Source: Trichodesmium erythraeum IMS101 (lineage in GTDB: Bacteria; Cyanobacteriota; Cyanobacteriia; Cyanobacteriales; Microcoleaceae). From it: a stretch of DNA of 32,000 bases. The notes beneath the pieces were generated by a model, which saw nothing but the letters and a program-made list of their open reading frames with translations, was not told the DNA's origin and made no database searches. The stretch covers positions 180,001-212,000 of the forward strand of contig NC_008312.1 in the NCBI RefSeq assembly GCF_000014265.1, given 5' to 3'. Shown here piece by piece: positions 15,946 through 31,856 of the stretch; the stretch's first letter is position 1, and each line of letters starts with the position of its first letter. The translations under genes were made by a program, and so were the position numbers.

Positions 15946-16223
15946 ATAGTACAAATTAAAGGTTAGTTTTAAGTAAATATTTAGCTATTAGCTCGATCTA
16001 TTTTCCTTAGTAATGCTGCACAAAATATGTATAAAATTAATAAATAAAGAAGTTTGGTTTATCATCTTTTTCCTTTCGTAATTTTAATTATCATTAGTGG
16101 GTAATTTTTCCTTATAGCTGATAGTTAATGGCTGACAAATTAATACTTACAGTATTAATACCATACTTCTTGATAGTAGTTGTCAGTTTTAAGTAAAAGT
16201 TATCAATCTTATTTAATCTCAGA

Positions 16224-16232
16224 TGGTATAAT
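16224..16232 (+). promoter_or_regulatory. candidate extended -10 promoter element (TGGTATAAT) for the DUF262 operon
   Basis: Exact TGnTATAAT lies 30 nt upstream of the ATG at 16262. A G-rich SD-like AGAGGGGG (16246..16253) sits 8 nt before the start codon. Confidence 0.4.
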
Positions 16233-16261
16233 CAAAGTACAAAAAAGAGGGGGTAAAATAT

Positions 16262-17389
16262 ATGGTAAATAAAGAAAATTCAGACAAATATCAAGAGGAA
16301 GAAAATGATGAAGAGGAAGAATATGAAAAGGATGACTTAATTTACGAGCCGGAGGAAATTAATATTATTACTAGAGAACCTACAATTGAACAGTTGGTGA
16401 GAAGAATAGATGAAAAAGTTCTTGATTTAGCTCCAGATTTTCAGCGTCATTCTGATATATGGAAAGATGACGTTAAAAGTAGATTAATTGAATCTATTAT
16501 TATTAGGATTCCTTTACCAGCTTTTTATATTGATGGTACTAATGAAGACAACTGGTTAGTAGTAGATGGATTGCAAAGACTTTCAGCTTTAAAGCAGTTT
16601 ATGATTAAAAGTAATAATAATTTACGGTTAACAGGTTTAGAATATCTTGGGGAAGAACTTAATAATAAAAGCTATGAAGAATTACCTCGTAAATATCAAC
16701 GTCGTATTCAAGAAACTCAAGTTACTGTCTATCTAATTGCGGCAGGTACACCACCTAAAGTTAAGTATAATATTTTTAAACGTATTAATACAGGAGGAGA
16801 ACGTTTAACTCCTCAAGAAATACGCCATGCTCTTAATCCTGGGAAAGTCCTCAAATTATTATTTTACCTTGCTAAATCTCCAGAATTTACTAATATTATT
16901 AAGCTTGGTGAATCACGACTCAAACGTATGGATGATAGAGAATTTGTATTAGGTGCTTTAGCAGTTATGCTTACATCTAATTCTTATGAAAATTATACAA
17001 AAGATGGCAGAGAAGAATTTTTAGATAATGCGATGAAAAAAATTAATGGTTTATCTGATTCGGAAATTAAAACACTTGAAAATAAATTTAGAAATACTAT
17101 GATTATTTGCCAAGAAATATTTGGCAACGAAGCTTTCCGCAAGCCAAAAAAACAAAGAAAAAATCCAGTTAATAAAGCATTATGTGAAACTTGGTCATTT
17201 CATATTAGTCAGCTTAATTCTCAACAGATTCAGAAACTTAAAAATCGGAAGCCAGAATTATTAGATAAATTTGCCAAATATATAGATGATGACAAAGAAT
17301 TTTTGATGTCGATATCTCAAGCTCAAGATAAGATAGAATATCGTTTTAAAACTATTAAAAAAATTATCGAGGAAGTTCTAAATGATTAG
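16262..17389 (+). CDS. DUF262 (ParB-like NTPase/nuclease superfamily) domain protein, first gene of a defence-like operon
   Basis: 375-aa ORF. It has the DUF262 hallmark blocks PDFQRHSDIWKDDVKSRLIESIIIRIPLPAFYI and VVDGLQRLSAL (a DGQQR-type motif) and an acidic N-terminal tail. Its stop overlaps the next ORF's start by 8 nt. Confidence 0.85.
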   Translation: MVNKENSDKYQEEENDEEEEYEKDDLIYEPEEINIITREPTIEQLVRRIDEKVLDLAPDFQRHSDIWKDDVKSRLIESIIIRIPLPAFYIDGTNEDNWLVVDGLQRLSALKQFMIKSNNNLRLTGLEYLGEELNNKSYEELPRKYQRRIQETQVTVYLIAAGTPPKVKYNIFKRINTGGERLTPQEIRHALNPGKVLKLLFYLAKSPEFTNIIKLGESRLKRMDDREFVLGALAVMLTSNSYENYTKDGREEFLDNAMKKINGLSDSEIKTLENKFRNTMIICQEIFGNEAFRKPKKQRKNPVNKALCETWSFHISQLNSQQIQKLKNRKPELLDKFAKYIDDDKEFLMSISQAQDKIEYRFKTIKKIIEEVLND

Positions 17390-18488
17390 TTTATTACGTC
17401 TAAAAAATTTTAAACCTTTTTCTAATCAATCTCTATCATTTAGACCGTTAACTTTACTTTCTGGTCTGAATAGCACTGGTAAATTTTCTACTTTACAAGC
17501 ATTACTATTAATGTGTCAATCTTATCAACAAGGTCTCTTTGAAAATCAAGGTTTATCTCTAAATGGTGAATTAATTCCTATAGGTACTGCTCAAGATGTA
17601 CTATTTGAAGGAGCAAAAGACGATTTTATTAGCTTTGAAATTGTCTGGCAAAATGGCGTTCGAGGAGTTTAGAATTTCTCTTATGACCGAGAAAAAGATG
17701 TTCTAAATCTTAACTCGCCATCTGTTGCTTTTAATATTTATAAATCCAGTCTTTTTAATAAAAAAATTCACTATCTGCAAGCTGAATGTTTAGGTCCTCA
17801 CTTATTTTTATAAATGTCATATTTCCAATTTCAACAACTAGAAAATTTAGCCACTAAAGGAGAATACACAGCCCATTTTTTATCTGTAAATGAAAGTAAA
17901 ACTATACCAAATCGTAGCTTAGGACATTCACAAGCAAAATCCCTAGTTTTAAGAGATCAAGTTGAAGCTTGGATGGGAGAAATTAGCCCTGGTACACACT
18001 TACAAATAAATGTTAAACAAGATATAGATTTAATCAGTCTTCAATATTATTATGGAGATAGTAACCCTTATCGTTCTACTAATGTTGGATTTGGAATTAG
18101 TTACACTTTACCAATTATTGTAGCTATTCTTTCATCCCCACCAGAAACTTTAATTATAATAGAAAATCCTGAGGCACATCTTCATCCGAAAGGTCAAGCA
18201 AAAATGGGAGAATTATTAGCTCTTGCTGCTAGTTGTGGAATGCAAATTGTAGTTGAAACTCACAGCGACCATGTTTTAAATGGAATTAGATTAATAGTTT
18301 ATAGAGAAAAAGTTGACCCTAAAAAAGTTCAATTACACTATTTTGACAGCCAAAAACGAGGAAGAGAATTTATCACTGAAGTTATATCCCCACAGATAGA
18401 TCGAAACGGACGGATCGATAAATGGCCAGAAGGTTTTTTTGATGAGTGGGATAATAGTTTAGAAGCTCTTTTGGAACCCAGGGAATAA
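17382..18488 (+). pseudogene. AAA/ABC-type ATPase with a DUF3696-like C-terminal domain, interrupted by two in-frame stop codons
   Basis: ORFs 17382..17672 and 17814..18488 are in the same frame (432 nt apart). The 46 codons between them are stop-free and family-like (IHYLQAECLGP). The stops are TAG at 17670..17672 and TAA at 17811..17813. Walker A reads GLNSTGKFS, with Phe where Ser/Thr is expected. Walker B and downstream read IIIENPEAHLHP...VETHSDHVLNG. Confidence 0.8.
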
Positions 18489-18505
18489 TAAATATAGATT
18501 TAGAA

Positions 18506-19444
18506 ATGGCGCTTAATGAACTTTCTCTACAGACTCCTATTGCTGATATTTCCACAGCGCAAAAATTAATGTCAGAGTTAATTCAAACTTTACGCCAAGT
18601 AAAAAGCCTAGGTATAAGACTGATACTTCGGACTCACAGTAATATTAACAATATAGAACTTGTTTGTGATTATCCTATAGCAAGTTTGCGTAACGACAAA
18701 ATAGTAGATTTAGAGGAGCGTAGATTTTTCCGTAGTCTAACTCTAAAAGCTCCTTTTTGTGAGGATGTTGTCCCAGAAATTAAAAATAAATTTGATGTGT
18801 CTGAAGTTCGGCATCAAGGAACATTAGTAGAGGGTCTTCATTTTGCTTTAATTAGTGATTATCTTGCGGTTAGTTTATTATCTGAACCCAAATGGGATAC
18901 AGATTTTTTGGATATTCAGGTAACAGAATTAGACGAAAATATAGAGTTAATTGACCAGTCCGAAAAAATTGTTCATGCTAGTCGCAGTCGCCATGTAAAA
19001 CAACATACCGAATGGATTAAAAACCACATCGAAAATAAATTATTTGCCGGGCAAGTTGATGGAGAAGTCTTATGGGAAAGAAGACAAGAATTTTTTCCGA
19101 ATTTAATCTTCTGTGAACAAGTAGAACAACAGTTACAACAACTAAAGAGTGGCGACTTAATTTTGCAACAAATAAAGAAACGGTTATTAGACTTAGAAAA
19201 ATACTGTAAACTTTGGAAAAATGGAGCTTTTAATCCCAATATTTTACCAAGCAAAACAACTCCAGAAAGTGACTCAAGAATTCAAAAGTTTAGACAAGAA
19301 CTAACTATTAAATGTCCGGATACTAAAGAAAGTCTTTTTAGTTGGCATCTACGGATGACTCCTGGTGCTTGGCGACTTTATTTTTCTGAAGAGTTAGGAC
19401 CAGGAAAAATAATCATTGGCTATATAGGTACTAAGTTACTTTAG
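18506..19444 (+). CDS. hypothetical protein, third gene of the DUF262/ATPase operon, with a RelE/Gp49(HigB)-like C-terminal motif
   Basis: Intact 312-aa ORF starting 17 nt after the ATPase gene. I recognised no family for the N-terminal 240 aa. The C-terminus WHLRMTPGAWRLYFSEELGPGKIIIGYIGTKL resembles the R..YF....I.I..IG.H/K ending of RelE/ParE/Gp49 toxins. Confidence 0.7.
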   Translation: MALNELSLQTPIADISTAQKLMSELIQTLRQVKSLGIRLILRTHSNINNIELVCDYPIASLRNDKIVDLEERRFFRSLTLKAPFCEDVVPEIKNKFDVSEVRHQGTLVEGLHFALISDYLAVSLLSEPKWDTDFLDIQVTELDENIELIDQSEKIVHASRSRHVKQHTEWIKNHIENKLFAGQVDGEVLWERRQEFFPNLIFCEQVEQQLQQLKSGDLILQQIKKRLLDLEKYCKLWKNGAFNPNILPSKTTPESDSRIQKFRQELTIKCPDTKESLFSWHLRMTPGAWRLYFSEELGPGKIIIGYIGTKLL

Positions 19445-19702: not shown

Positions 19703-19894
19703 ATGAGCAAAAATTACAACTTTCTCATTACCCAATTTTCCTATGTTTTTGGTATTCTCAGCATTTTAACTTTATTAGTATGGATCCTAAGAGGGTGGAA
19801 AGTCCTCTCATTTTTACCAGGAGGAGTGCTTTTATTTCTAATTTTTATATCCATAGTAACTGGCGTCATTAGTCTATTACAAAGACCACGGTAA
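19703..19894 (+). CDS. possible small membrane protein with two predicted TM helices
   Basis: 63-aa ORF with two hydrophobic stretches (FSYVFGILSILTLLVWIL and LPGGVLLFLIFISIVTGVISLL). No recognised family. Confidence 0.35.
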   Translation: MSKNYNFLITQFSYVFGILSILTLLVWILRGWKVLSFLPGGVLLFLIFISIVTGVISLLQRPR

Positions 19895-21053: not shown

Positions 21054-22232
21054 TGCTTTTACATAAAAAATATCATAAAAATTATGGGTATTTGAGAATA
21101 AATGAGTGAGTAACTACAACTTAAAAGTAAAAATTAATTATAGTAAGCATTTATATATTCGGTGCAGAATAGTTTGCAATTCAGCTTTTGAACATATTCA
21201 AGGAATTATCAAAAGTTAGCTTATCACCAATTTCATTTCCTAGTTGATACTGTAGAAACATAACTTTTAATTCTCCTTGAAGACTAATTACTTCTGCCTA
21301 GATAATGAGTAATAACTGATAACTATTTGAGTTTAGTTATCTGTAAAATAGTAAAGTAGATTCAAAATGGTGATAAATATTTGATAAATTGTTTACCAAT
21401 TATTTTTGAGATTTTTTTTTATCTTTATCTATGCTTACCTGTTTAACTGATAGCTGATAGCTGAATGCTTACAAATTATAAATTGATCAATCTCGAAATA
21501 TTGACCAAAGTAAATTATTGATTTTTTTCAGTTGAATACTTATTATTAATATAGTAGGGTACTAGCAGTAGTAGGGAATAAATTGGAATATATCTAGCCC
21601 TTTATCCTTGATTTTATTTTCATAACTACTTGAGATGAAATATTTATCCTGGGTTATTCCTCTAGGTGTAATAAATTTTGTTTTCTACCTATAGTGGTTT
21701 TCACTTTATGACTACAAAACTTCTCCCCTCTGCTTTATAGCTTCTGCCTTGAAAACAAAAAATGTGTGTATTTCTTGAATCATGAAAACTGCTATAAGTA
21801 ATGATATTAACTTGGAGCTTGACTTATGCAAAGCAAGCCCAGAAATCTAGTTTTTTTATTTTGGGTTATGAATGTTAAAAACAATGATTTTTTTGTAGAA
21901 ATAGAATATAAGCGTAGGTGAGTTCTATTTATATAGTGCTAAATATATTTAAGTAACGAAAATATAAAATAGGGAGTAAGGATGAATTATAAGTCTTTTT
22001 TATAAACTAGAATTATTATAAAATATTAAATTAATTGTAATCCAAAATTAGCCATAATAAAGGGTATCAAAAATATTACCTACTATCTATTCCCTATTCC
22101 TTCTTGTCTACTACCTAATCACAACCTCTTTGCCACTAACAAATTAATTCAAAATTAGTTTAAAATTGTAGTGGTAACCTGACTTGAAAGTATCACTCAA
22201 TTAAATGGACACCTTAGAATCTCAAATCTGAT

Positions 22233-22853: not shown

Positions 22854-23258
22854 GTGATTAGCCTTGCCCTTCCTTATTTGATTATCAGCATGGTAAAATA
22901 AAAATAAATAAGTTCCACGCAAAATTAAATACCAGAACCGACTTTCTACATACAGTATTTTCCATTATTACAGGGTATAGTAGAAATACTTAGTAAACCA
23001 TTTTTTTCAAAATTAATGATTTATTAACACCAAGTTCACATAAATGGTTATATAAACCATTTGTGTTATAGTTGGAGGTAATAATTAAAGTATCTAAAAT
23101 CCAGTAATAGAGTGACTTATGAAAATCACTGACTCAGCAATTTAATAGTATCATTCTCAATAATGACGAAAATAAAAGCTTGTAGCCATTTATAATTGAG
23201 AATATAATTAGGAAAGTAATGACTAGAAATGCTTATAAGTAAAAACTTATACCATGTA

Positions 23259-24305
23259 CCGTTGAATACTTAAACTTTGGAGGCAATAAGGCAGGACGCT
23301 CTGTGACTTTCAGCAGAATGATAGAATTGGTACTTACAGTCGTTAGTTTTTTTGATCACTGATTATCCGGACATGATACTATCAACTTTTAAATAAGACT
23401 TAAATGCTTAAAGTTGAAAAAAAACTTCGTCAAAAATATTTCAATTGCAACCACCATAATTCAATGGAATAAGTCACGAGAGTATGGAGATAAACTTAGG
23501 ACTTTAGCCCTTATAAATTCAACTATATCTTCAATTAAATCTAGTTTGTGTGCAGGTAAATTATCCATAACTACAACTCCTCTAACCATAATTTAAGTAG
23601 TAAAAAATACTCAATAAATGCTTCAAATGTTAATAGTAAAATTAAATTATTTATCCTCGTTAATAGCTACTATTTTTTTATTAGTTATAGCTTAAATTAC
23701 TGCAACTTTTTTACCTATAAAAATGCTTGACTTTCATATTATTTGCAACCATTATCTGAACTTGTATGAGTTCTTTTCAAACCTAGTATAAACCTAGTAT
23801 TACTTCTATTTTATATAAAAATATCAAGTTTGATTTATTGCTTTATATCTTTTACCTTTTACCGCTACTATACTCTTAATTTCGGCAATTTTTTTTGTTG
23901 CTGCTTGTCTACTGTTCAATATTTTGTTTATTTTACGGCTTAATTCCAGTTTTTGTAAAGCTCGAAAAATAACAGTCAGACTTAGCAAATTTTCCGCTTT
24001 AAATGTAAATAACTAACATAATTCTACCTTAGTTGCATCTAGATTTTATGATGCTTTTCCTCTGATTTTTTTAAGATTACCAAATTTTGTTTTCCCATCT
24101 TTTAATAGTTATAAATTGTTATATTATTTATATTGTTTTACCATTTTTTTTCCAACCTTTAGTGACAATAAAAATTATTGCTACTTGCCGAATTAATATT
24201 TTCTAATTCAGACGTGATGCAACTATTTTGTATCAGATATTTGTTGAATATAATTTCATAACAAATCATCTTAATTATTGTTTCTAAGTTTACTATCAAA
24301 TCCGC
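23259..24305 (-). mobile_element. decayed IS630/Tc1-mariner-family insertion sequence (transposase pseudogene plus imperfect terminal inverted repeats)
   Basis: Minus-strand translation gives family-like pieces broken by stops and frameshifts. These are MKLYSTNI*YKIVASRLN.. (start near 24259), ..IFRALQKLELSRKINKILNSRQAATKKIAEIK.., the DDE_3 core RGVVVMDNLPAHKLDLIEDIVEFIRAKVLSLSPYSRDLFH*IMVVAIEIFLTKF, and the tail ..KKTNDCKYQFYHS. The ends CCGTTGAATACTTAAACTTTGGAGGCAATAAGG (about 23259..) and the reverse complement of 24272..24305 (CGGATTTGATAGTAAACTTAGAAACAATAATTA) are similar. Confidence 0.7.
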
Positions 24306-24810
24306 GGAAGCTTCTATAAATTTTTTACTAAAATTATTAATGAAAACTAAGTAATAGTTTTAAAGAACTTTAATGTTTCTCGAGTACTTAAAAACCGTAA
24401 CTATCTTCTAAGTTTTTGGTTGGTGTTGGTTGATTACCCCGTGATACCAAATCCAGTTATTAGTAGCTTAGTTAATTAAGTAAAAAATCCTGATCAGATT
24501 TGGGTTTTTAATTTGTGAATACCTCCTAATTCAATCATATTTGGTATGAAAACTCAAACAACCTAATAGCTAAGTCTATAAGTCTAGTAAAGGAAAGAAT
24601 CCCCATACCTTTAGGGCTAATACAGTTCAGATAAGACCAAAACTATTATATTATGGAACTATTAGAGTAGCTCTTCAGACTACTGAAGTGCCAAAAAAAG
24701 ACTTAACTGAAACCTATTGCCTTGAGGTCGGGGAAGACCTCAACAATTGGTAAAGATTAGAGAAAAAACTTAATTGTCAAACCCAAAATATTTTTCTTCT
24801 GGGAACTTTG

Positions 24811-25995: not shown

Positions 25996-26673
25996 TTCGC
26001 AACAAGATAAATGAGCCTTAGAACTTTTCTTCTTCGCTGACCAGATTTATATTCTTTGGGGACTAGTCAAAGTAACCTTACACAATAAAACCTATTAAAA
26101 ATCCTTATAGGCATTATGTTTTGTATAAATTGGTTAGATATTAGATGAAGATTTACGGCAGATTCCAAGTATATGAAGTACTCATATTAAAAAATGCCTC
26201 GCCGGAGTGGGTGGGGTTTAAATAAAACCTTTGTATTACAGGCACCTTAACTACGACAGCTATACTTCACCCTTGATGAAATCGGCTGTATTACTTTTTC
26301 AGGATTTTCAACATATTTCACCAGTTGGGCATACTCTCGAAGCTACTATCATTTGTATTGATTAGGCAATAATCAAAACAGCTAACTTACTTGACGAGAG
26401 TTTCAGGCTTACTAGCTTGGTTGAACGTATCGTATAGTTAATAGTTTTAATCGTAGTAATTTCATTTTTTAGTCTCATTTAATTATACCACAAAAAGTTT
26501 ATATCTATTCTGGGAATTGGAATTTAACTTTACTCCTTCTAATTTCTGACTTTAGCTATATCAGTGGGTTACAACGCACAAATTCTACCTAGTATCTAGT
26601 TGCAAAAGTTAATTTATTTATAGAATACTGCGAGTAGTTATATTTTTTTGGCCATTAAGTAAGCAATTGAGGA

Positions 26674-26755
26674 GTTCACAGATTCGTAACTTGAGAATCT
26701 CAAGCTTTTTATTTAGAAAAAAACGTGAACTCAAAGATTCTCGACTCAAGAATAC
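26674..26755. repeat. composite inverted/direct repeat cluster
   Basis: GAGTTCAC (26672..26679) and GTGAACTC (26725..26732) are complementary. CTTGAG-AAT-CTCAAG (26690..26704) is a hairpin followed by CTTTTTATTT. AGATTCGTAACTTGAGAAT and AGATTCTCGACTCAAGAAT form an imperfect direct repeat (14 of 19). Confidence 0.45.
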
Positions 26756-26795
26756 TATTACTAATTTTTACAATTAGACACTAGGATGAGCAACT

Positions 26796-26827
26796 ATTGT
26801 TGGCAATTTATTGTTGGCAACTGGCAA
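26796..26827 (+). repeat. tandem ATTGTTGGCAA x2 (14-nt period) followed by CTGGCAA
   Basis: Exact 11-mers at 26796..26806 and 26810..26820, with a third TGGCAA at 26822..26827. Confidence 0.6.
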
Positions 26828-27053
26828 ATCTACCCTAAATAAGAATTTAACTTTAGTGTTAATCAAGACTTTCTCAATAACTTTTTGGTCGATAACTTAA
26901 GGGATAAAAACTTAATCAAATTTCTATAAAGTCTACTAAAATCTCACTTACTTACCCCAATACAGCAATTGGAGCAAATGGTTGTAAAAATTCAAACACT
27001 AGAAATAAACTCCGAAACTCTTGCCCCGGCAGTCCCAAATCCTATTCCCTATT

Positions 27054-27106
27054 TCTCAAGAATCAGCAAGATTTTGGACAATATCAAAATAGGATTGCTA
27101 TATTTT
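27054..27106 (+). repeat. dispersed intergenic repeat family R1, copy D
   Basis: TCTCAAGAATCAGCAAGATTTT...AAAATAGGATTGCTATATTTTA parallels copy A. It is preceded by CCCAAATCCTATTCCCTATTTC, which contains the inverted GGATTTGG module and the AGGGAATAGG motif. Confidence 0.55.
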
Positions 27107-27238
27107 ATTAATTGTTTAGTATTAGCTTAATTGAACCCAAGATCTAATTTTGGAGGTTAAATTTTGATTTAATCAAGGTTAAATAGCTTAACTTGCTGTA
27201 ATCTATTCTTAGATAAAAACAATTTTAAGTGGGTATAA

Positions 27239-27502
27239 ATGGCTAATAACTTACTGATTTCTGAGAGCTCATCTAGTTTTTCTAAAGCTGATTCTTCTTT
27301 AGATGCTGCTAGAAAAGTACATGAAGAAGGAAAATCAACTAATCAAACCCGTACCTTAAAACAGATGAAGTCCTTATATCAAACAGATCAACAAGTTAAG
27401 TTGCTTCACCTTGAGGCAGAAATAGAAACTCTCTTATTAGAATTACGAACCATTAGAGAACGCAATTTAGTCTCACTGATTGAAAAAGAAGTCAGCCTAT
27501 AA
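27239..27502 (+). CDS. possible small hypothetical protein (Ser-rich N-terminus, coiled-coil C-terminus)
   Basis: 87-aa ORF with no recognised family. A good intrinsic terminator follows about 210 nt downstream on the same strand. Confidence 0.3.
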   Translation: MANNLLISESSSSFSKADSSLDAARKVHEEGKSTNQTRTLKQMKSLYQTDQQVKLLHLEAEIETLLLELRTIRERNLVSLIEKEVSL

Positions 27503-27715
27503 AAATTCTGAAGGCTATTATAGCTAAACTTGAGCAAAAAAAAAGAAGTAGCAAAAGCAACAAAATTAATTAATCTGGTTAGTAAAAAGATTATGATATA
27601 ATTAAGAAGTATCTTGCTACATACAGCCACCATTGTTTTGAACACAATTTACTAAAAATCACTAAATACTATTAGTTCTAAGCATTAGCTGTAAAAATAT
27701 TTCTGAGCTCAAAAC

Positions 27716-27749
27716 CGCCAGCAAAGTTTTTGAGCTGGCGTGTTTTTTT
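27716..27749 (+). terminator. Rho-independent terminator (CGCCAGC, 11-nt loop, GCTGGCG, then TGTTTTTTT)
   Basis: A 7-bp GC-rich stem (27716..27722 / 27734..27740) is followed by a T7 run (27743..27749). It lies 57 nt upstream of the desaturase ATG. Confidence 0.6.
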
Positions 27750-27805
27750 GGAGTAATAAATTTACTACATAACTATCAAAAAAAAACGGGGAATTTAAAC
27801 AATTT

Positions 27806-29439: not shown

Positions 29440-30882
29440 ATGAGCTTCAGTTTTAATCCAGATTTATGTCGCAATGAAAGCGAAGTAGAAAGCAAACTAA
29501 TTGTTAGTTATCTACTGCCGAAATTAGGATACAGTCTCGAACATTGGCATCAAGAAGTGACCTTAGGTAATATCCGTTTAGACTTTTTATCATTTGCTGC
29601 TCAGGAATTACCTTTCTCTTTGAATGGAGACTATCCTTTAGCTTTAGTAATGGAGGCAAAACACCCAAAAAAAAATTTAGACCGCCATCAACGACAAATT
29701 AGGCGATATTTAACAAGTTTGAATGTAAAATATGGCTTGTTAACTAATGCTAAAGAAATTAGGATTTATAAGAGAGAAAAAAATGACATTAAGTTAGTAT
29801 TTAAGTGTTGGGGAAGTGAAGTCGATTACAAAATAGAAGAAATTAAAGCATTAGTAGGTCGAGATTATTTGGGTAAAAATGTGAGTTCTGAGCAACCGGA
29901 AATTCGTCTAGAAGAAGCAGGGTTAAGTCACGCAAACACTACTCAATATAAGACAGAAAAAAATCTTATCAACACCCCTGAAAATAAGGTAAATGAAATG
30001 AATAAAAATAGTATTAATTCGATGAAAGTAATCGCTGTTTATCATAATAAAGGTGGAGTTGGAAAAACGACAACAGTAGTTAATTTAGCTGCTGCATTGA
30101 GTAAAAAAGGTTATCGAGTTTTGGTTATAGACTTAGATAGTCAGGCGAATACAACTTTTGCAACCGGTCTAATTAAATTTAGTGATGAGCAATTTGATGA
30201 TATAAAAGACTCCTATATTTATCATGTTTTGAGGTATGATGAATATTCTAGTATTTCGGAAGTATCTAGAGTTTCTAGGTTTAATGATCCAGAAATTGAT
30301 GTAGTTCCTTCTCATATAAATTTAATGGATGTTGAAGGTGAGTTGAACGGTCTAAGAAGTACTCAAACTGCACTAATAAAAAAATTAAAACTCGTAGAAG
30401 AAAAATATGATGTTGTTCTAATAGATACCCCACCTTCTTTGAATTTATATGCCTTTGTTCCTTTAGTCAGTGCTAACTATTTAATTATTCCTTCAGACTT
30501 AAAACCATTTGCTAATCAAGGTTTATTTAATGTTAAAAATTATCTTCAGCGGGATGTTAACCCCTTTCGGCAAATGATGAATAAACCAGATATAGAAATA
30601 TTAGGTGTACTGCCTTGTAAAATTAACCCTAATCATAGATTTGTACAACATACATTACCAAAACAGATTCAAGCAGTTTCTAAGCGTTACGATCTTAATA
30701 TTATGGAAACGGTTATATTTCAAAGAGAAGAACTTGCTAGGTGTGTTGATAAAACTCGTGAAGTTGGAAATTTGTTGATACCTGAACCTAGCTCTATATT
30801 TGACTATGCACTAGATTCTTCTTCTTCCCAAGAGTTTGAGTCATTAGCAAAAGAAGTATTAAACAAAATTGGACTACAATAA
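29440..30882 (+). CDS. fusion protein: N-terminal HsdR-N-like PD-(D/E)xK domain plus C-terminal ParA/Soj-family deviant Walker A ATPase
   Basis: 480-aa ORF. Residues 10 to 115 (NESEVESKLIVSYLLPKLGY...IRLDFLSF...LALVMEAKHPKKNLDRHQRQIRRYL...YGLLTNAKEIRIY) follow the type I restriction enzyme R-subunit N-terminal domain pattern, with D...ExK preserved. Residues 196 to 480 carry ParA motifs: VYHNKGGVGKTTT, LVIDLDSQAN and VVLIDTPPSL. Confidence 0.85.
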   Translation: MSFSFNPDLCRNESEVESKLIVSYLLPKLGYSLEHWHQEVTLGNIRLDFLSFAAQELPFSLNGDYPLALVMEAKHPKKNLDRHQRQIRRYLTSLNVKYGLLTNAKEIRIYKREKNDIKLVFKCWGSEVDYKIEEIKALVGRDYLGKNVSSEQPEIRLEEAGLSHANTTQYKTEKNLINTPENKVNEMNKNSINSMKVIAVYHNKGGVGKTTTVVNLAAALSKKGYRVLVIDLDSQANTTFATGLIKFSDEQFDDIKDSYIYHVLRYDEYSSISEVSRVSRFNDPEIDVVPSHINLMDVEGELNGLRSTQTALIKKLKLVEEKYDVVLIDTPPSLNLYAFVPLVSANYLIIPSDLKPFANQGLFNVKNYLQRDVNPFRQMMNKPDIEILGVLPCKINPNHRFVQHTLPKQIQAVSKRYDLNIMETVIFQREELARCVDKTREVGNLLIPEPSSIFDYALDSSSSQEFESLAKEVLNKIGLQ

Positions 30883-31856
30883 TGTTATTATCTCCAGAAT
30901 TTTTACTTGTAAAAGAAATTACTTCTAATGTATCTCGTTCCGAGTTTTCAGAGTCAGATTTAGAACAAGTTGCTCGGTTAATTTTAAAAGCTGAAGGTAC
31001 AATTAAACCTCTAGTTGTACGTACTATTGGTTGGGAATCTTACGAAGTAGTTAACGGACATTTTGAGTATTATGCTGCACTTAGAGCAAAAGAAATAAAT
31101 CCTCGTGATGGGGAAAGAATAGGAGCATTTATTATTGAAGGTCATAAAGCAGATGTGTTAGAAGAACAGGTGAAAATGCTCAGGAATATTTATCCTATAT
31201 CTGAGGACTTTATGAAAATTCCTAGAAATATTTCTCCTGTATCTGAAGCTCCTACAATTCAAGAAGAAGGTAGAATCAATTTAAGTAATTTAGATAAGCT
31301 GCTAGATCAAAAATTGCAATTAATAACAACAAAGTTAGATCGATTAAATGCATCATCTCCTATTGATTATCAATCTCAAGAAAATAAGATCATAGAGCAA
31401 AAACTGGAGAATATTGAAAGTAAAGTTAACCAGTTATTACCAAAAACAAATATCACAGAAATTGAGGAAATTCTGAATAATAAACTAGAAATTATACGTC
31501 AAAAAATTAGTAATCTATCTAAGCAGGAAGCTTTAGATATATTAGCAAAAAATAAAACAGCTTTAAATCGATATTTAGAAGCTATTGATCGTGAATCTAA
31601 TCAACTACAAAGAGTTAATTTGTTAACAGTAGAAACAGAAGAGGAAATCCAACAAGCTTTCCAGCGTAACAATATAAGAGGAGGAAATGAGGCATGGAAA
31701 GCAATTGAATATTGGCGAAAACCAGGTAAAAAGCTGACATGGGAAAATTTAGAAAAATCAGCAAAGACAGCAAGAAAAGGTCATCAAGATAAAATACAAG
31801 GATTTGCAAAAGGTACTTACAACAATTTAAAAAAGATTGGCTATATACCTGATTAA
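30882..31856 (+). CDS. ParB-N-terminal-domain-like protein with a long coiled coil and a degenerate arginine patch
   Basis: 324-aa ORF whose start overlaps the upstream stop (TAATG). The N-terminal part, LVKEITSNVSRSEFSESDLEQVARLILKAEGTIKPLVVRTIGWESYEVVNGHFEYYAALRAKEIN, follows the ParB/Srx layout, but GERRxRA is replaced by NGHFEYYAA. The central region is coiled coil and the C-terminal region is basic. Confidence 0.7.
   Translation: MLLSPEFLLVKEITSNVSRSEFSESDLEQVARLILKAEGTIKPLVVRTIGWESYEVVNGHFEYYAALRAKEINPRDGERIGAFIIEGHKADVLEEQVKMLRNIYPISEDFMKIPRNISPVSEAPTIQEEGRINLSNLDKLLDQKLQLITTKLDRLNASSPIDYQSQENKIIEQKLENIESKVNQLLPKTNITEIEEILNNKLEIIRQKISNLSKQEALDILAKNKTALNRYLEAIDRESNQLQRVNLLTVETEEEIQQAFQRNNIRGGNEAWKAIEYWRKPGKKLTWENLEKSAKTARKGHQDKIQGFAKGTYNNLKKIGYIPD

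Follow-up and report, generated by a model that had tools for sequence, protein, structure and literature searches.

A Type I Menshen operon at a fixed chromosomal site of Trichodesmium erythraeum IMS101, probably inactivated by decay of its ATPase gene nsnB

The cyanobacterium Trichodesmium erythraeum IMS101 carries a compact operon of three genes that resembles an anti-phage system, which raises the question of which system it represents and whether it could still work. We analyzed this operon in a window of 32,000 nucleotides of the IMS101 genome (all positions are counted from the start of this window), in which it occupies positions 16224-19444 and locus tags Tery_0134-0137. An original prediction, made from the letters alone, had described a DUF262 protein, a DUF3696-type ATPase and a third protein, proposed that this trio is the architecture of the Menshen (NsnABC) system and considered it the clearest accessory or immunity locus in the window. 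Menshen was reportedly named by Millman et al. in 2022. Our analysis identifies it as a Menshen operon residing at a fixed chromosomal site, and makes it likely that decay of the ATPase gene nsnB has inactivated it in T. erythraeum and that the IMS101 operon no longer confers Menshen immunity.

Open reading frame (ORF) listing and translation of the region yielded three plus-strand frames, nsnA, nsnB and nsnC, whose coordinates are collected in Table 1 together with those of the other features of the locus. The gene arrangement is as originally predicted, i.e. three genes on the same strand at the coordinates given for them, with an 8-nt overlap between the nsnA and nsnB frames and a 17-nt gap between the nsnB stop at 18488 and the nsnC start at 18506. 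The sequence motifs quoted in support of that prediction (FQR, DGLQRL, ENPEAHLHP and THSDH) are all present in the translations. As determined by exact-sequence look-up, the products are found in public records as ABG49629, ABG49631 and Tery_0137/ABG49632.

Table 1. Features of the Menshen locus of T. erythraeum IMS101, in order of their position in the window
Feature	Position	Strand	Description and basis
Conserved upstream block (ATACTTCTT ... AGTTGTCA(A/G)T ... AGTTATCAAT), putative regulatory site	16163..16209	+	Invariant columns in alignment
Extended -10-like element TGGTATAAT	16224..16232	+	30 nt upstream of nsnA start codon; read in sequence
nsnA (Tery_0134)	16262..17389	+	375 aa (amino acids), intact ORF; PADLOC NsnA, Pfam GmrSD_N
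nsnB pseudogene	17382..18488	+	Single frame collinear with intact 369-aa orthologues, no indels
Walker A lesion S35F (TCT>TTT), GKS to GKF	17484..17486	+	Alignment to intact orthologues
Nonsense mutation W97* (TGG>TAG)	17670..17672	+	W in at least 95% of aligned relatives
R136C (CGT>TGT) in invariant LQAERLGPR block	17787..17789	+	Alignment to relatives
Nonsense mutation E144* (GAA>TAA), native Met145 codon directly after	17811..17813	+	Alignment to intact orthologues
nsnB residual ORF (Tery_0136)	17814..18488	+	224 aa; Pfam DUF3696 2.3e-18; PADLOC NsnB 1.6e-84
Ancestral nsnC start codon, ATG to ATA in IMS101	18494..18496	+	L087 and all aligned relatives keep ATG (MDLEM...)
nsnC (Tery_0137)	18506..19444	+	312 aa, intact ORF; PADLOC NsnC 2.1e-106

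The first part of the question, the identity of the system, was answered by the protein models. As assessed by PADLOC, the first product matches NsnA over residues 11-374 (2.8e-128, model positions 19-384 of 385). Pfam places a GmrSD_N (DUF262) domain at residues 42-190 (8.2e-22), and the DGLQR and FKRIN motifs are present. The second gene matches NsnB in two pieces, one covering model positions 1-88 (4.6e-25) and the other, corresponding to the residual ORF, positions 134-344; Pfam recognizes AAA_15, AAA_21 and DUF3696 in these pieces. The third product matches two NsnC models, the weaker match being 2.8e-64. For these three products, all non-Menshen PADLOC systems score far below the NsnA, NsnB and NsnC models. 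Hence, the DUF262 and DUF3696 domains predicted for the first two genes both have Pfam matches, and the proposed identity as Menshen, for which a PADLOC run had been suggested as a check, holds, since the three Nsn models are by far the best matches. According to Li et al. (2025, PMC12065111), NsnA of Type I Menshen has no globular domain N-terminal to DUF262. In IMS101, NsnA consists of an acidic N-terminal loop, a ParB-like DUF262 domain and a C-terminal ParBDB domain; residues 1-41 are an acidic low-complexity stretch and DUF262 begins at residue 42. Because only this acidic loop precedes DUF262, we assign the locus to a Type I Menshen (NsnABC) operon.

This assignment is consistent with a comparison to the archetype from Solibacillus silvestris StLB046, the only Menshen system described as experimentally validated (Li et al. 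2025, PMC12065111), which has the same three genes in the same order and the same Type I layout. In both, NsnA contains DUF262 with DGxQR and FxxxN motifs followed by a C-terminal domain, NsnB is an ABC-type ATPase that ends in a DUF3696 tail and has an EN variant of Walker B, a GxG signature and an H-loop, and NsnC is a two-domain protein, with a C terminus that is probably RelE/BECR-like. Unlike the archetype, the IMS101 locus has an nsnB that is a pseudogene (two stops, S35F and R136C) and an nsnC without its original start codon. In addition, according to our own mapping on the alignment, this clade mostly has Lys (GxKI) in place of the final His of the proposed H-R-H catalytic triad.

Other systems share parts of this architecture. 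The modified-DNA sensors GmrSD, SspE and DndB have in common with NsnA the ParB-like DUF262 NTPase module and a helical DNA-binding domain after it. However, GmrSD and SspE have a nuclease (DUF1524) fused to the sensor, whereas the effector here is a separate gene reached via the ATPase, and Pfam detected no DUF1524. The NsnB pieces also match the AriA, PtuA and GajA models of PARIS (AriA/AriB), Septu (PtuA/PtuB) and Gabija (GajA), far more weakly than NsnB. These systems resemble Menshen in their proposed logic, in which an ATPase oligomer restrains or activates a bound toxin (PMC12065111), but they have no DUF262 sensor gene and their effectors are Toprim or HNH nucleases instead of a protein with putative inPIN and RelE-like domains. 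It could be asked whether the first gene in fact represents another system based on DUF262 (GmrSD, PD-T4-2, Dazbog or SspE) and lies next to the other two genes by chance, considering that NsnA has additional matches to PD-T4-2_A (3.5e-40) and to a Type II REase model (2.4e-15) and that the Pfam label of its domain is GmrSD_N. This is hardly credible, because the first product reaches 426 bits with the NsnA model and 136 bits with PD-T4-2_A, Pfam finds no DUF1524/HNH nuclease domain fused to the first gene, the adjoining genes match the NsnB and NsnC models, and the synteny is conserved in related genome loci. Together, the PADLOC scores and the conserved synteny refute an identity as GmrSD, PD-T4-2, Dazbog or SspE.

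The second part of the question, whether the operon could work, turns on nsnB. This had been described as one gene, and in that respect the original prediction fell short: the frame contains a TAG and a TAA codon, which leave two ORFs of 96 and 224 aa that stand as separate proteins in public records. The interrupted frame aligns without gaps to the intact NsnB of L089, L008 and L007, and alignment of the relatives shows that the ancestral codons at the two stops were TGG (W97) and GAA (E144). The missense changes include substitutions in the active site. In NsnB, the Walker A motif is GxxxxGKS and an Arg replaces the Q motif (PMC12065111); S35F alters this Walker A motif, and R136, which we infer to be the Arg standing in for the Q-loop Gln, is changed by R136C. 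There are further Arg changes, R45C and R140H, in invariant blocks. In all, NsnB deviates at 12 of the 138 columns conserved in at least 95% of 71 relatives, the family median being 1. What remains in the 224-aa ORF is a Walker B variant (IIIENPE), the signature motif (GFG), an H-loop (THSDH) and the DUF3696 tail. When compared with an intact Menshen ATPase, the IMS101 NsnB has stops at codons 97 and 144, GKF in Walker A, R136C and R140H, together with a preserved Walker B and H-loop.

These lesions are not confined to a single genome sequence. The stops and the missense changes are identical in six independent assemblies and in a metagenome-assembled genome (MAG) of a sister T. erythraeum (L087), which rules out sequencing error as the source of the stops, and the 224-aa NsnB fragment is on record from five T. 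erythraeum-clade genomes (exact-sequence look-up). Among the changes that can be polarized on the stem branch, 20 of 30 are G/C>A/T, the expected product of mutational decay in an AT-rich genome. Judged from its sequence, nsnB is a pseudogene that is fixed in the T. erythraeum clade, and the view of the operon as the clearest immunity locus in the window has to be revised for an ATPase gene carrying two nonsense mutations and active-site missense changes.

Could the operon nevertheless be fully functional, with the stops read through or bypassed, or with the two NsnB pieces acting as a split ATPase? The absence of indels in the nsnB frame and the annotation of the pieces as separate proteins would be compatible with this. 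However, there are two different stops (TAG and TAA), separated by 46 codons without a start codon, and both broken lineages share the Walker A Ser>Phe change and 10 further substitutions at conserved sites. No tRNA and no Rfam family were found anywhere in the window, i.e. neither a suppressor tRNA nor a recoding RNA element. Since the substitution pattern in the N-terminal region is moreover neutral-like (see below), a functional operon of this kind is strongly disfavored, and we regard it as very improbable.

What the loss of NsnB would mean can be read from the mechanism proposed for intact Menshen, a model derived from structure predictions and not from experiments (Li et al. 2025, PMC12065111). 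In brief, (i) NsnA, which combines a ParB-like DUF262 and a DNA-binding domain, would sense phage DNA, (ii) NsnA would then stimulate NsnB, an ABC-type ATPase forming a GajA-like tetramer, and (iii) the DUF3696 tails of NsnB would hold the N-terminal domain of NsnC until ATP binding or hydrolysis frees or activates the C-terminal nuclease of NsnC, here a RelE-like module. With no NsnB capable of binding nucleotide, sensing would be uncoupled from the effector. We thus propose that the T. erythraeum clade has a vertically inherited Type I Menshen that was inactivated through pseudogenization of nsnB. As the signal-transduction step would be missing, most likely no Menshen-type immunity arises from the IMS101 operon.

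We then compared the locus with 80 related genome loci. NsnC is directly preceded by NsnB in all of them except L035, which is cut at a contig end, and L053. In turn, NsnB is preceded by NsnA in every locus whose contig extends far enough, with the exception of L025. Because the A-B-C order is kept across related genome loci, the adjacency of the three genes is not fortuitous, and the synteny test proposed with the original prediction was passed in the cyanobacterial loci that extend far enough upstream. Trichodesmium, Okeania, Dapis and related Microcoleaceae carry the operon at the same site, with the order cobN-GHL10 / nsnABC / orf63-brkB-orf206-thrC. In this same-site comparison, the flanking proteins and the Menshen proteins diverge about equally. 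The operon therefore does not behave as the variable accessory locus that had been suspected, and its shared site points to an old, vertically inherited resident instead of a recently acquired island.

The related loci also answer whether the ATPase is intact elsewhere, as had been asked. NsnB is one stop-free open frame of 366-368 residues in L088/L089, in L008 and in 65 of 78 related cyanobacterial loci, and it is intact in a third marine Trichodesmium lineage (L088/L089, 369 aa), in Trichodesmium sp. jk18x7bins.61, and in Okeania and Dapis. On the other hand, stops, deletions or fusions affect one of the genes in about a dozen of the 80 loci, and further Trichodesmium lineages carry different disruptions. 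In L090 (contig positions 1643-2752), there is a single stop at NsnB codon 90, with an intact Walker A and an otherwise pristine active site. Another Trichodesmium contig, L091 (positions 247-2802), has E185* in NsnA, E144*, S146* and Y162* in NsnB, and two stops in NsnC. One of these, E144* (GAA>TAA), is common to L091 and IMS101, while the rest of the L091 NsnB resembles the intact L089 allele; the shared stop could be due to recombination or to recurrence. Taken together, these alleles argue for independent and recurrent decay of Menshen among Trichodesmium lineages.

To follow the locus after the break, we used the divergence between the window and L087, which post-dates the break because both share the lesions. 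Divergence amounts to 0-0.17% in the housekeeping flanks, ∼0.43% in intergenic DNA, 0.44% in nsnA, 0.99% in nsnB and 1.47% in nsnC. The three genes differ by 3 synonymous and 27 non-synonymous substitutions, such that a ratio of non-synonymous to synonymous rates (omega, or dN/dS) of 0.5 or less is rejected (p = 0.003) and omega = 1 is not; in intact lineages omega is 0.15-0.5. Consisting of only 30 substitutions, which are partly clustered, this data set rejects strong purifying selection and cannot separate neutrality from positive selection. The clusters comprise 4 differences within 17 nt (17392-17408) and 8 within 49 nt (18861-18909), and substitutions are about twice as dense in the Menshen genes as in intergenic DNA (0.94% versus 0.43%, P = 9e-5). 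Possible sources are recombination patches between alleles, or constraint on "non-coding" Trichodesmium DNA, which would lower the apparent neutral rate. Recombinant alleles do exist (P0137), and some of the differences between the window and L087 may be imported patches. The non-synonymous excess, the loss of the nsnC start codon and the NsnC changes W61L and R276S fit a locus drifting towards loss.

Over the longer interval since the split from the intact L089 lineage, the amino acid changes in the broken lineage are unevenly distributed. NsnB residues 1-234 have undergone 30 changes, which strike 15 of 75 conserved columns. In residues 235-368, there are 7 changes and none of the 63 conserved columns is struck (Fisher p = 5.5e-5 versus 1-234). 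NsnA has 23 changes with 1 of 111 conserved columns struck (binomial p = 0.003), the window NsnA as such deviating at 2 of these 111 columns, and NsnC is intermediate with 32 changes and 4 of 47 columns. The proportion of synonymous differences (pS) is 0.116 in the C-terminal third of NsnB, compared with 0.085 and 0.037 in the N-terminal parts, and the ratio of non-synonymous to synonymous differences (pN/pS) is 0.22, compared with 0.75-1.14. Since synonymous divergence is not reduced, recent recombination is ruled out as the reason why the C-terminal third is clean. The pattern suggests that, for much of the time during which the ATPase head decayed, constraint persisted on NsnA and on the end of NsnB that bears DUF3696.

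Several of these observations weigh against a simple loss of the whole operon. If all of it had turned neutral at once, the clean NsnB 235-368 and the well-kept NsnA would not be expected, and nsnA and nsnC are still full-length ORFs in a genome of 30% G+C. Moreover, the mechanism that we propose to be interrupted is itself a model built from structure predictions. As for the open frames, ∼6% of NsnB substitutions are nonsense, and from this figure we roughly estimate a chance of about 0.07 that neutral evolution would leave both nsnA and nsnC open. With such a chance of neutral survival, the intact nsnA and nsnC ORFs are not strong evidence of selection.

The uneven decay opens a different, less probable reading, in which the locus is disarmed but not dead. 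The C-terminal fragment of NsnB, i.e. the 224 aa from Met145 or a shorter product, would still be made and selected to dock and restrain the RelE-like NsnC in a manner reminiscent of toxin-antitoxin pairs, and NsnA would be kept for a function of its own. Besides the contrast between the struck N-terminal part of NsnB and the nearly unscathed C-terminal part and NsnA, and besides a C-terminal pS and pN/pS that recombination does not explain, a native ATG directly follows the TAA at 17811, DUF3696 is the predicted NsnC-docking element (PMC12065111), and in L090 and L013, too, the N-terminal part of NsnB is lost whereas nsnC and the C-terminal part of NsnB persist. However, the stem branch on which these counts were made also spans time before the stops arose. 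The changes that certainly came after the stops are too few, by eye ∼11 in residues 1-234 and ∼3 in 235-368, one of the latter at a probably conserved Gln (Q271K), and the C-terminal dN/dS on this lineage is calculated from ∼4-7 non-synonymous and 2 synonymous changes. No Shine-Dalgarno-like sequence precedes Met145. In addition, L016 and L030 delete the DUF3696-NsnC junction, L053 has no NsnB although its nsnC is nearly whole, and the IMS101 NsnC itself has W61L, R276S and a lost start codon. Overall, the Menshen ATPase of Trichodesmium has been knocked out repeatedly in its N-terminal, nucleotide-binding part, with the C-terminal third of NsnB, NsnA and the NsnC ORF being retained. It is an unlikely though not negligible prospect that the truncated NsnB still serves as a safety catch, in effect an antitoxin, for NsnC, and that the locus lives on as a remnant of the addiction type or as a module of two or three parts that has been rewired. 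If true, natural variation would here offer evidence for the predicted interaction of DUF3696 with NsnC, and would indicate which half of NsnB restrains the effector and which one triggers it. Even if the operon has simply been inactivated, as we consider likely, the uneven decay of nsnB is a testable lead on the part of NsnB that restrains NsnC.

The third gene, which had been left without a nameable family, matches NsnC in PADLOC, and its C-terminal module resembles RelE. We found 201 homologues at E ≤ 1e-5, of which those with a name are nearly all cyanobacterial, and in the loci examined they sit downstream of NsnA-NsnB. The protein consists of an alpha/beta N-terminal domain (∼180 residues), a helical linker and the C-terminal module, near the end of which H281, R283, W289, R290, Y306 and G308 are invariant or near-invariant in the alignment. 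The IMS101 protein departs from the alignment at two near-invariant sites (W61L and R276S). Its translation must begin at Met5 (18506), because the ancestral ATG has been lost. Sequence comparison of NsnC with Pfam (including all 36 members of the alignment) and, by profile, with PDB sequences produced nothing meaningful. We therefore turned to predicted structures, in line with the Foldseek check that had been proposed for this gene. The AlphaFold2 model of full-length NsnC has a predicted local distance difference test (pLDDT) score of 86.7 and no PDB match at E ≤ 1e-3, RelE toxins being the only coherent matches; an inactive PIN-like (inPIN) fold, as described for the N-terminal domain of Menshen NsnC, received no confirmation from this comparison. 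For a model of the last 132 residues (pLDDT 90.1), the top Foldseek matches in the PDB are RelE, YoeB, ParE and HigB, with a probability of up to 0.92 and a template modeling (TM) score of 0.5-0.62, none of them at E ≤ 1e-3; the same domain model has no match among viral structures. Most NsnC proteins contain BECR-type RNase modules (Li et al. 2025, PMC12065111). A RelE-like/BECR fold of the C-terminal module is thus supported but not proven. In the predicted structure, it resembles the type II toxins RelE, YoeB and ParE in fold and in the conserved His, Arg and Tyr on the sheet. Unlike these toxins, the module is fused to the N-terminal domain and helical linker, and there is no cognate small antitoxin gene.

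The effector gene has a further peculiarity in some relatives. In the orthologous loci of Okeania and Dapis, the full gene is immediately followed by 1-3 tandem copies of the last ∼330-365 nt of nsnC (L007:6972-7881, L009:6972-7286 and L010:5526-7077). The repeat unit corresponds to the linker helix plus the RelE-like module and begins near the conserved FCEQVEQQLQ box. In L010, Tandem Repeats Finder reports a period of 365 with 2.3 copies and a 95% match, and more diverged copies are found further on. Some copies have internal stops, and the T. erythraeum window contains no such copies. The repeats have the appearance of a tandem duplication or of orphan cassettes of the effector module.

How does this locus relate to what was known? 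The system is a known one, and the locus most likely represents a degenerate member of it and not a new defense. The statement that no cyanobacterial version had been characterized needs qualification: cyanobacteria already account for 8.16% of the genomes carrying Menshen in a survey of 1997 systems (Li et al. 2025, PMC12065111), none of which is known to have been tested experimentally. In the literature searched, we found no mention of Tery_0134 to Tery_0137. T. erythraeum has been described as having a dearth of phage-resistance genes when compared with T. thiebautii (PMC9950141), and as having a genome of which only 60% is coding and in which a relic repeat array has no cas genes next to it (PMC4143802). 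The locus would provide, in a globally important nitrogen fixer, a concrete case in which point mutations disabled an inherited defense that other Trichodesmium have lost independently. It also has a practical side. Defense finders based on hidden Markov models score all three components and may call a complete system, since both NsnB fragments carry ordinary protein annotations. An intactness check is needed when defense systems are counted in pseudogene-rich genomes.

Upstream of nsnA, the original prediction had pointed to an extended -10 element. The element is indeed present as TGGTATAAT, but it does not stand as evidence on its own: the window contains 4 copies of TGNTATAAT, where chance alone would give 3.7, and because its frequency equals chance the match alone does not argue for a promoter. 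A consensus scan of the window for promoters and terminators gave counts at chance level, and the extended -10 is unlisted there as it has no -35 partner. What gives the element weight is conservation. TG(G/A)TATAAT is present in 7 of 8 aligned orthologous upstream regions, L089 having TAGTATAAT. Further upstream, the block at 16163-16209 has many invariant columns among the 8 aligned regions from Trichodesmium, Okeania and Dapis, and ahead of the -10 element it contains a 10-nt direct repeat, AGTTGTCA(A/G)T ... AGTTATCAAT, with a 20-nt spacing, which may be an operator for a regulator. Since Okeania and Dapis preserve both the -10 element and the upstream block in their orthologous loci, a real promoter upstream of nsnA is plausible.

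Ordinary chromosomal genes flank the operon: on one side lie urtABCDE, cobN and the gene for a GHL10 hydrolase, on the other brkB/yihY and thrC. A 63-aa hydrophobic ORF without a family match (19703-19894) follows shortly after nsnC in the same orientation. It is kept at the same position with 65-86% identity in Okeania, Dapis and other Trichodesmium loci and, because of this conservation in place, it appears to be a real gene for a small membrane protein. None was seen beside Menshen outside the Trichodesmium/Okeania/Dapis clade.

Elsewhere in the window, no ORF of at least 90 aa is found across 21054-22232, 22854-24810 and 25996-27805, which fits the ∼60% coding density of T. erythraeum. On the minus strand, a 94-aa ORF at 8512-8796 matches only positions 26-114 of the 172-position Uma2 Pfam model (putative restriction endonuclease), below the gathering score, and is probably the remnant of a truncated gene. 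Finally, an overlapping gene pair at 29440-31856 encodes a 480-aa protein followed by a 324-aa ParB_N-domain protein. In the 480-aa protein, which has weak PADLOC matches to PDC-M28B and mad2, a fused N-terminal HSDR_N_2 / PD-(D/E)XK-like region precedes a ParA/AAA_31 ATPase. The pair could be a ParA/ParB-like module of an unusual kind that carries a nuclease-like head, or else a partition-like chromosomal pair or a candidate defense pair.

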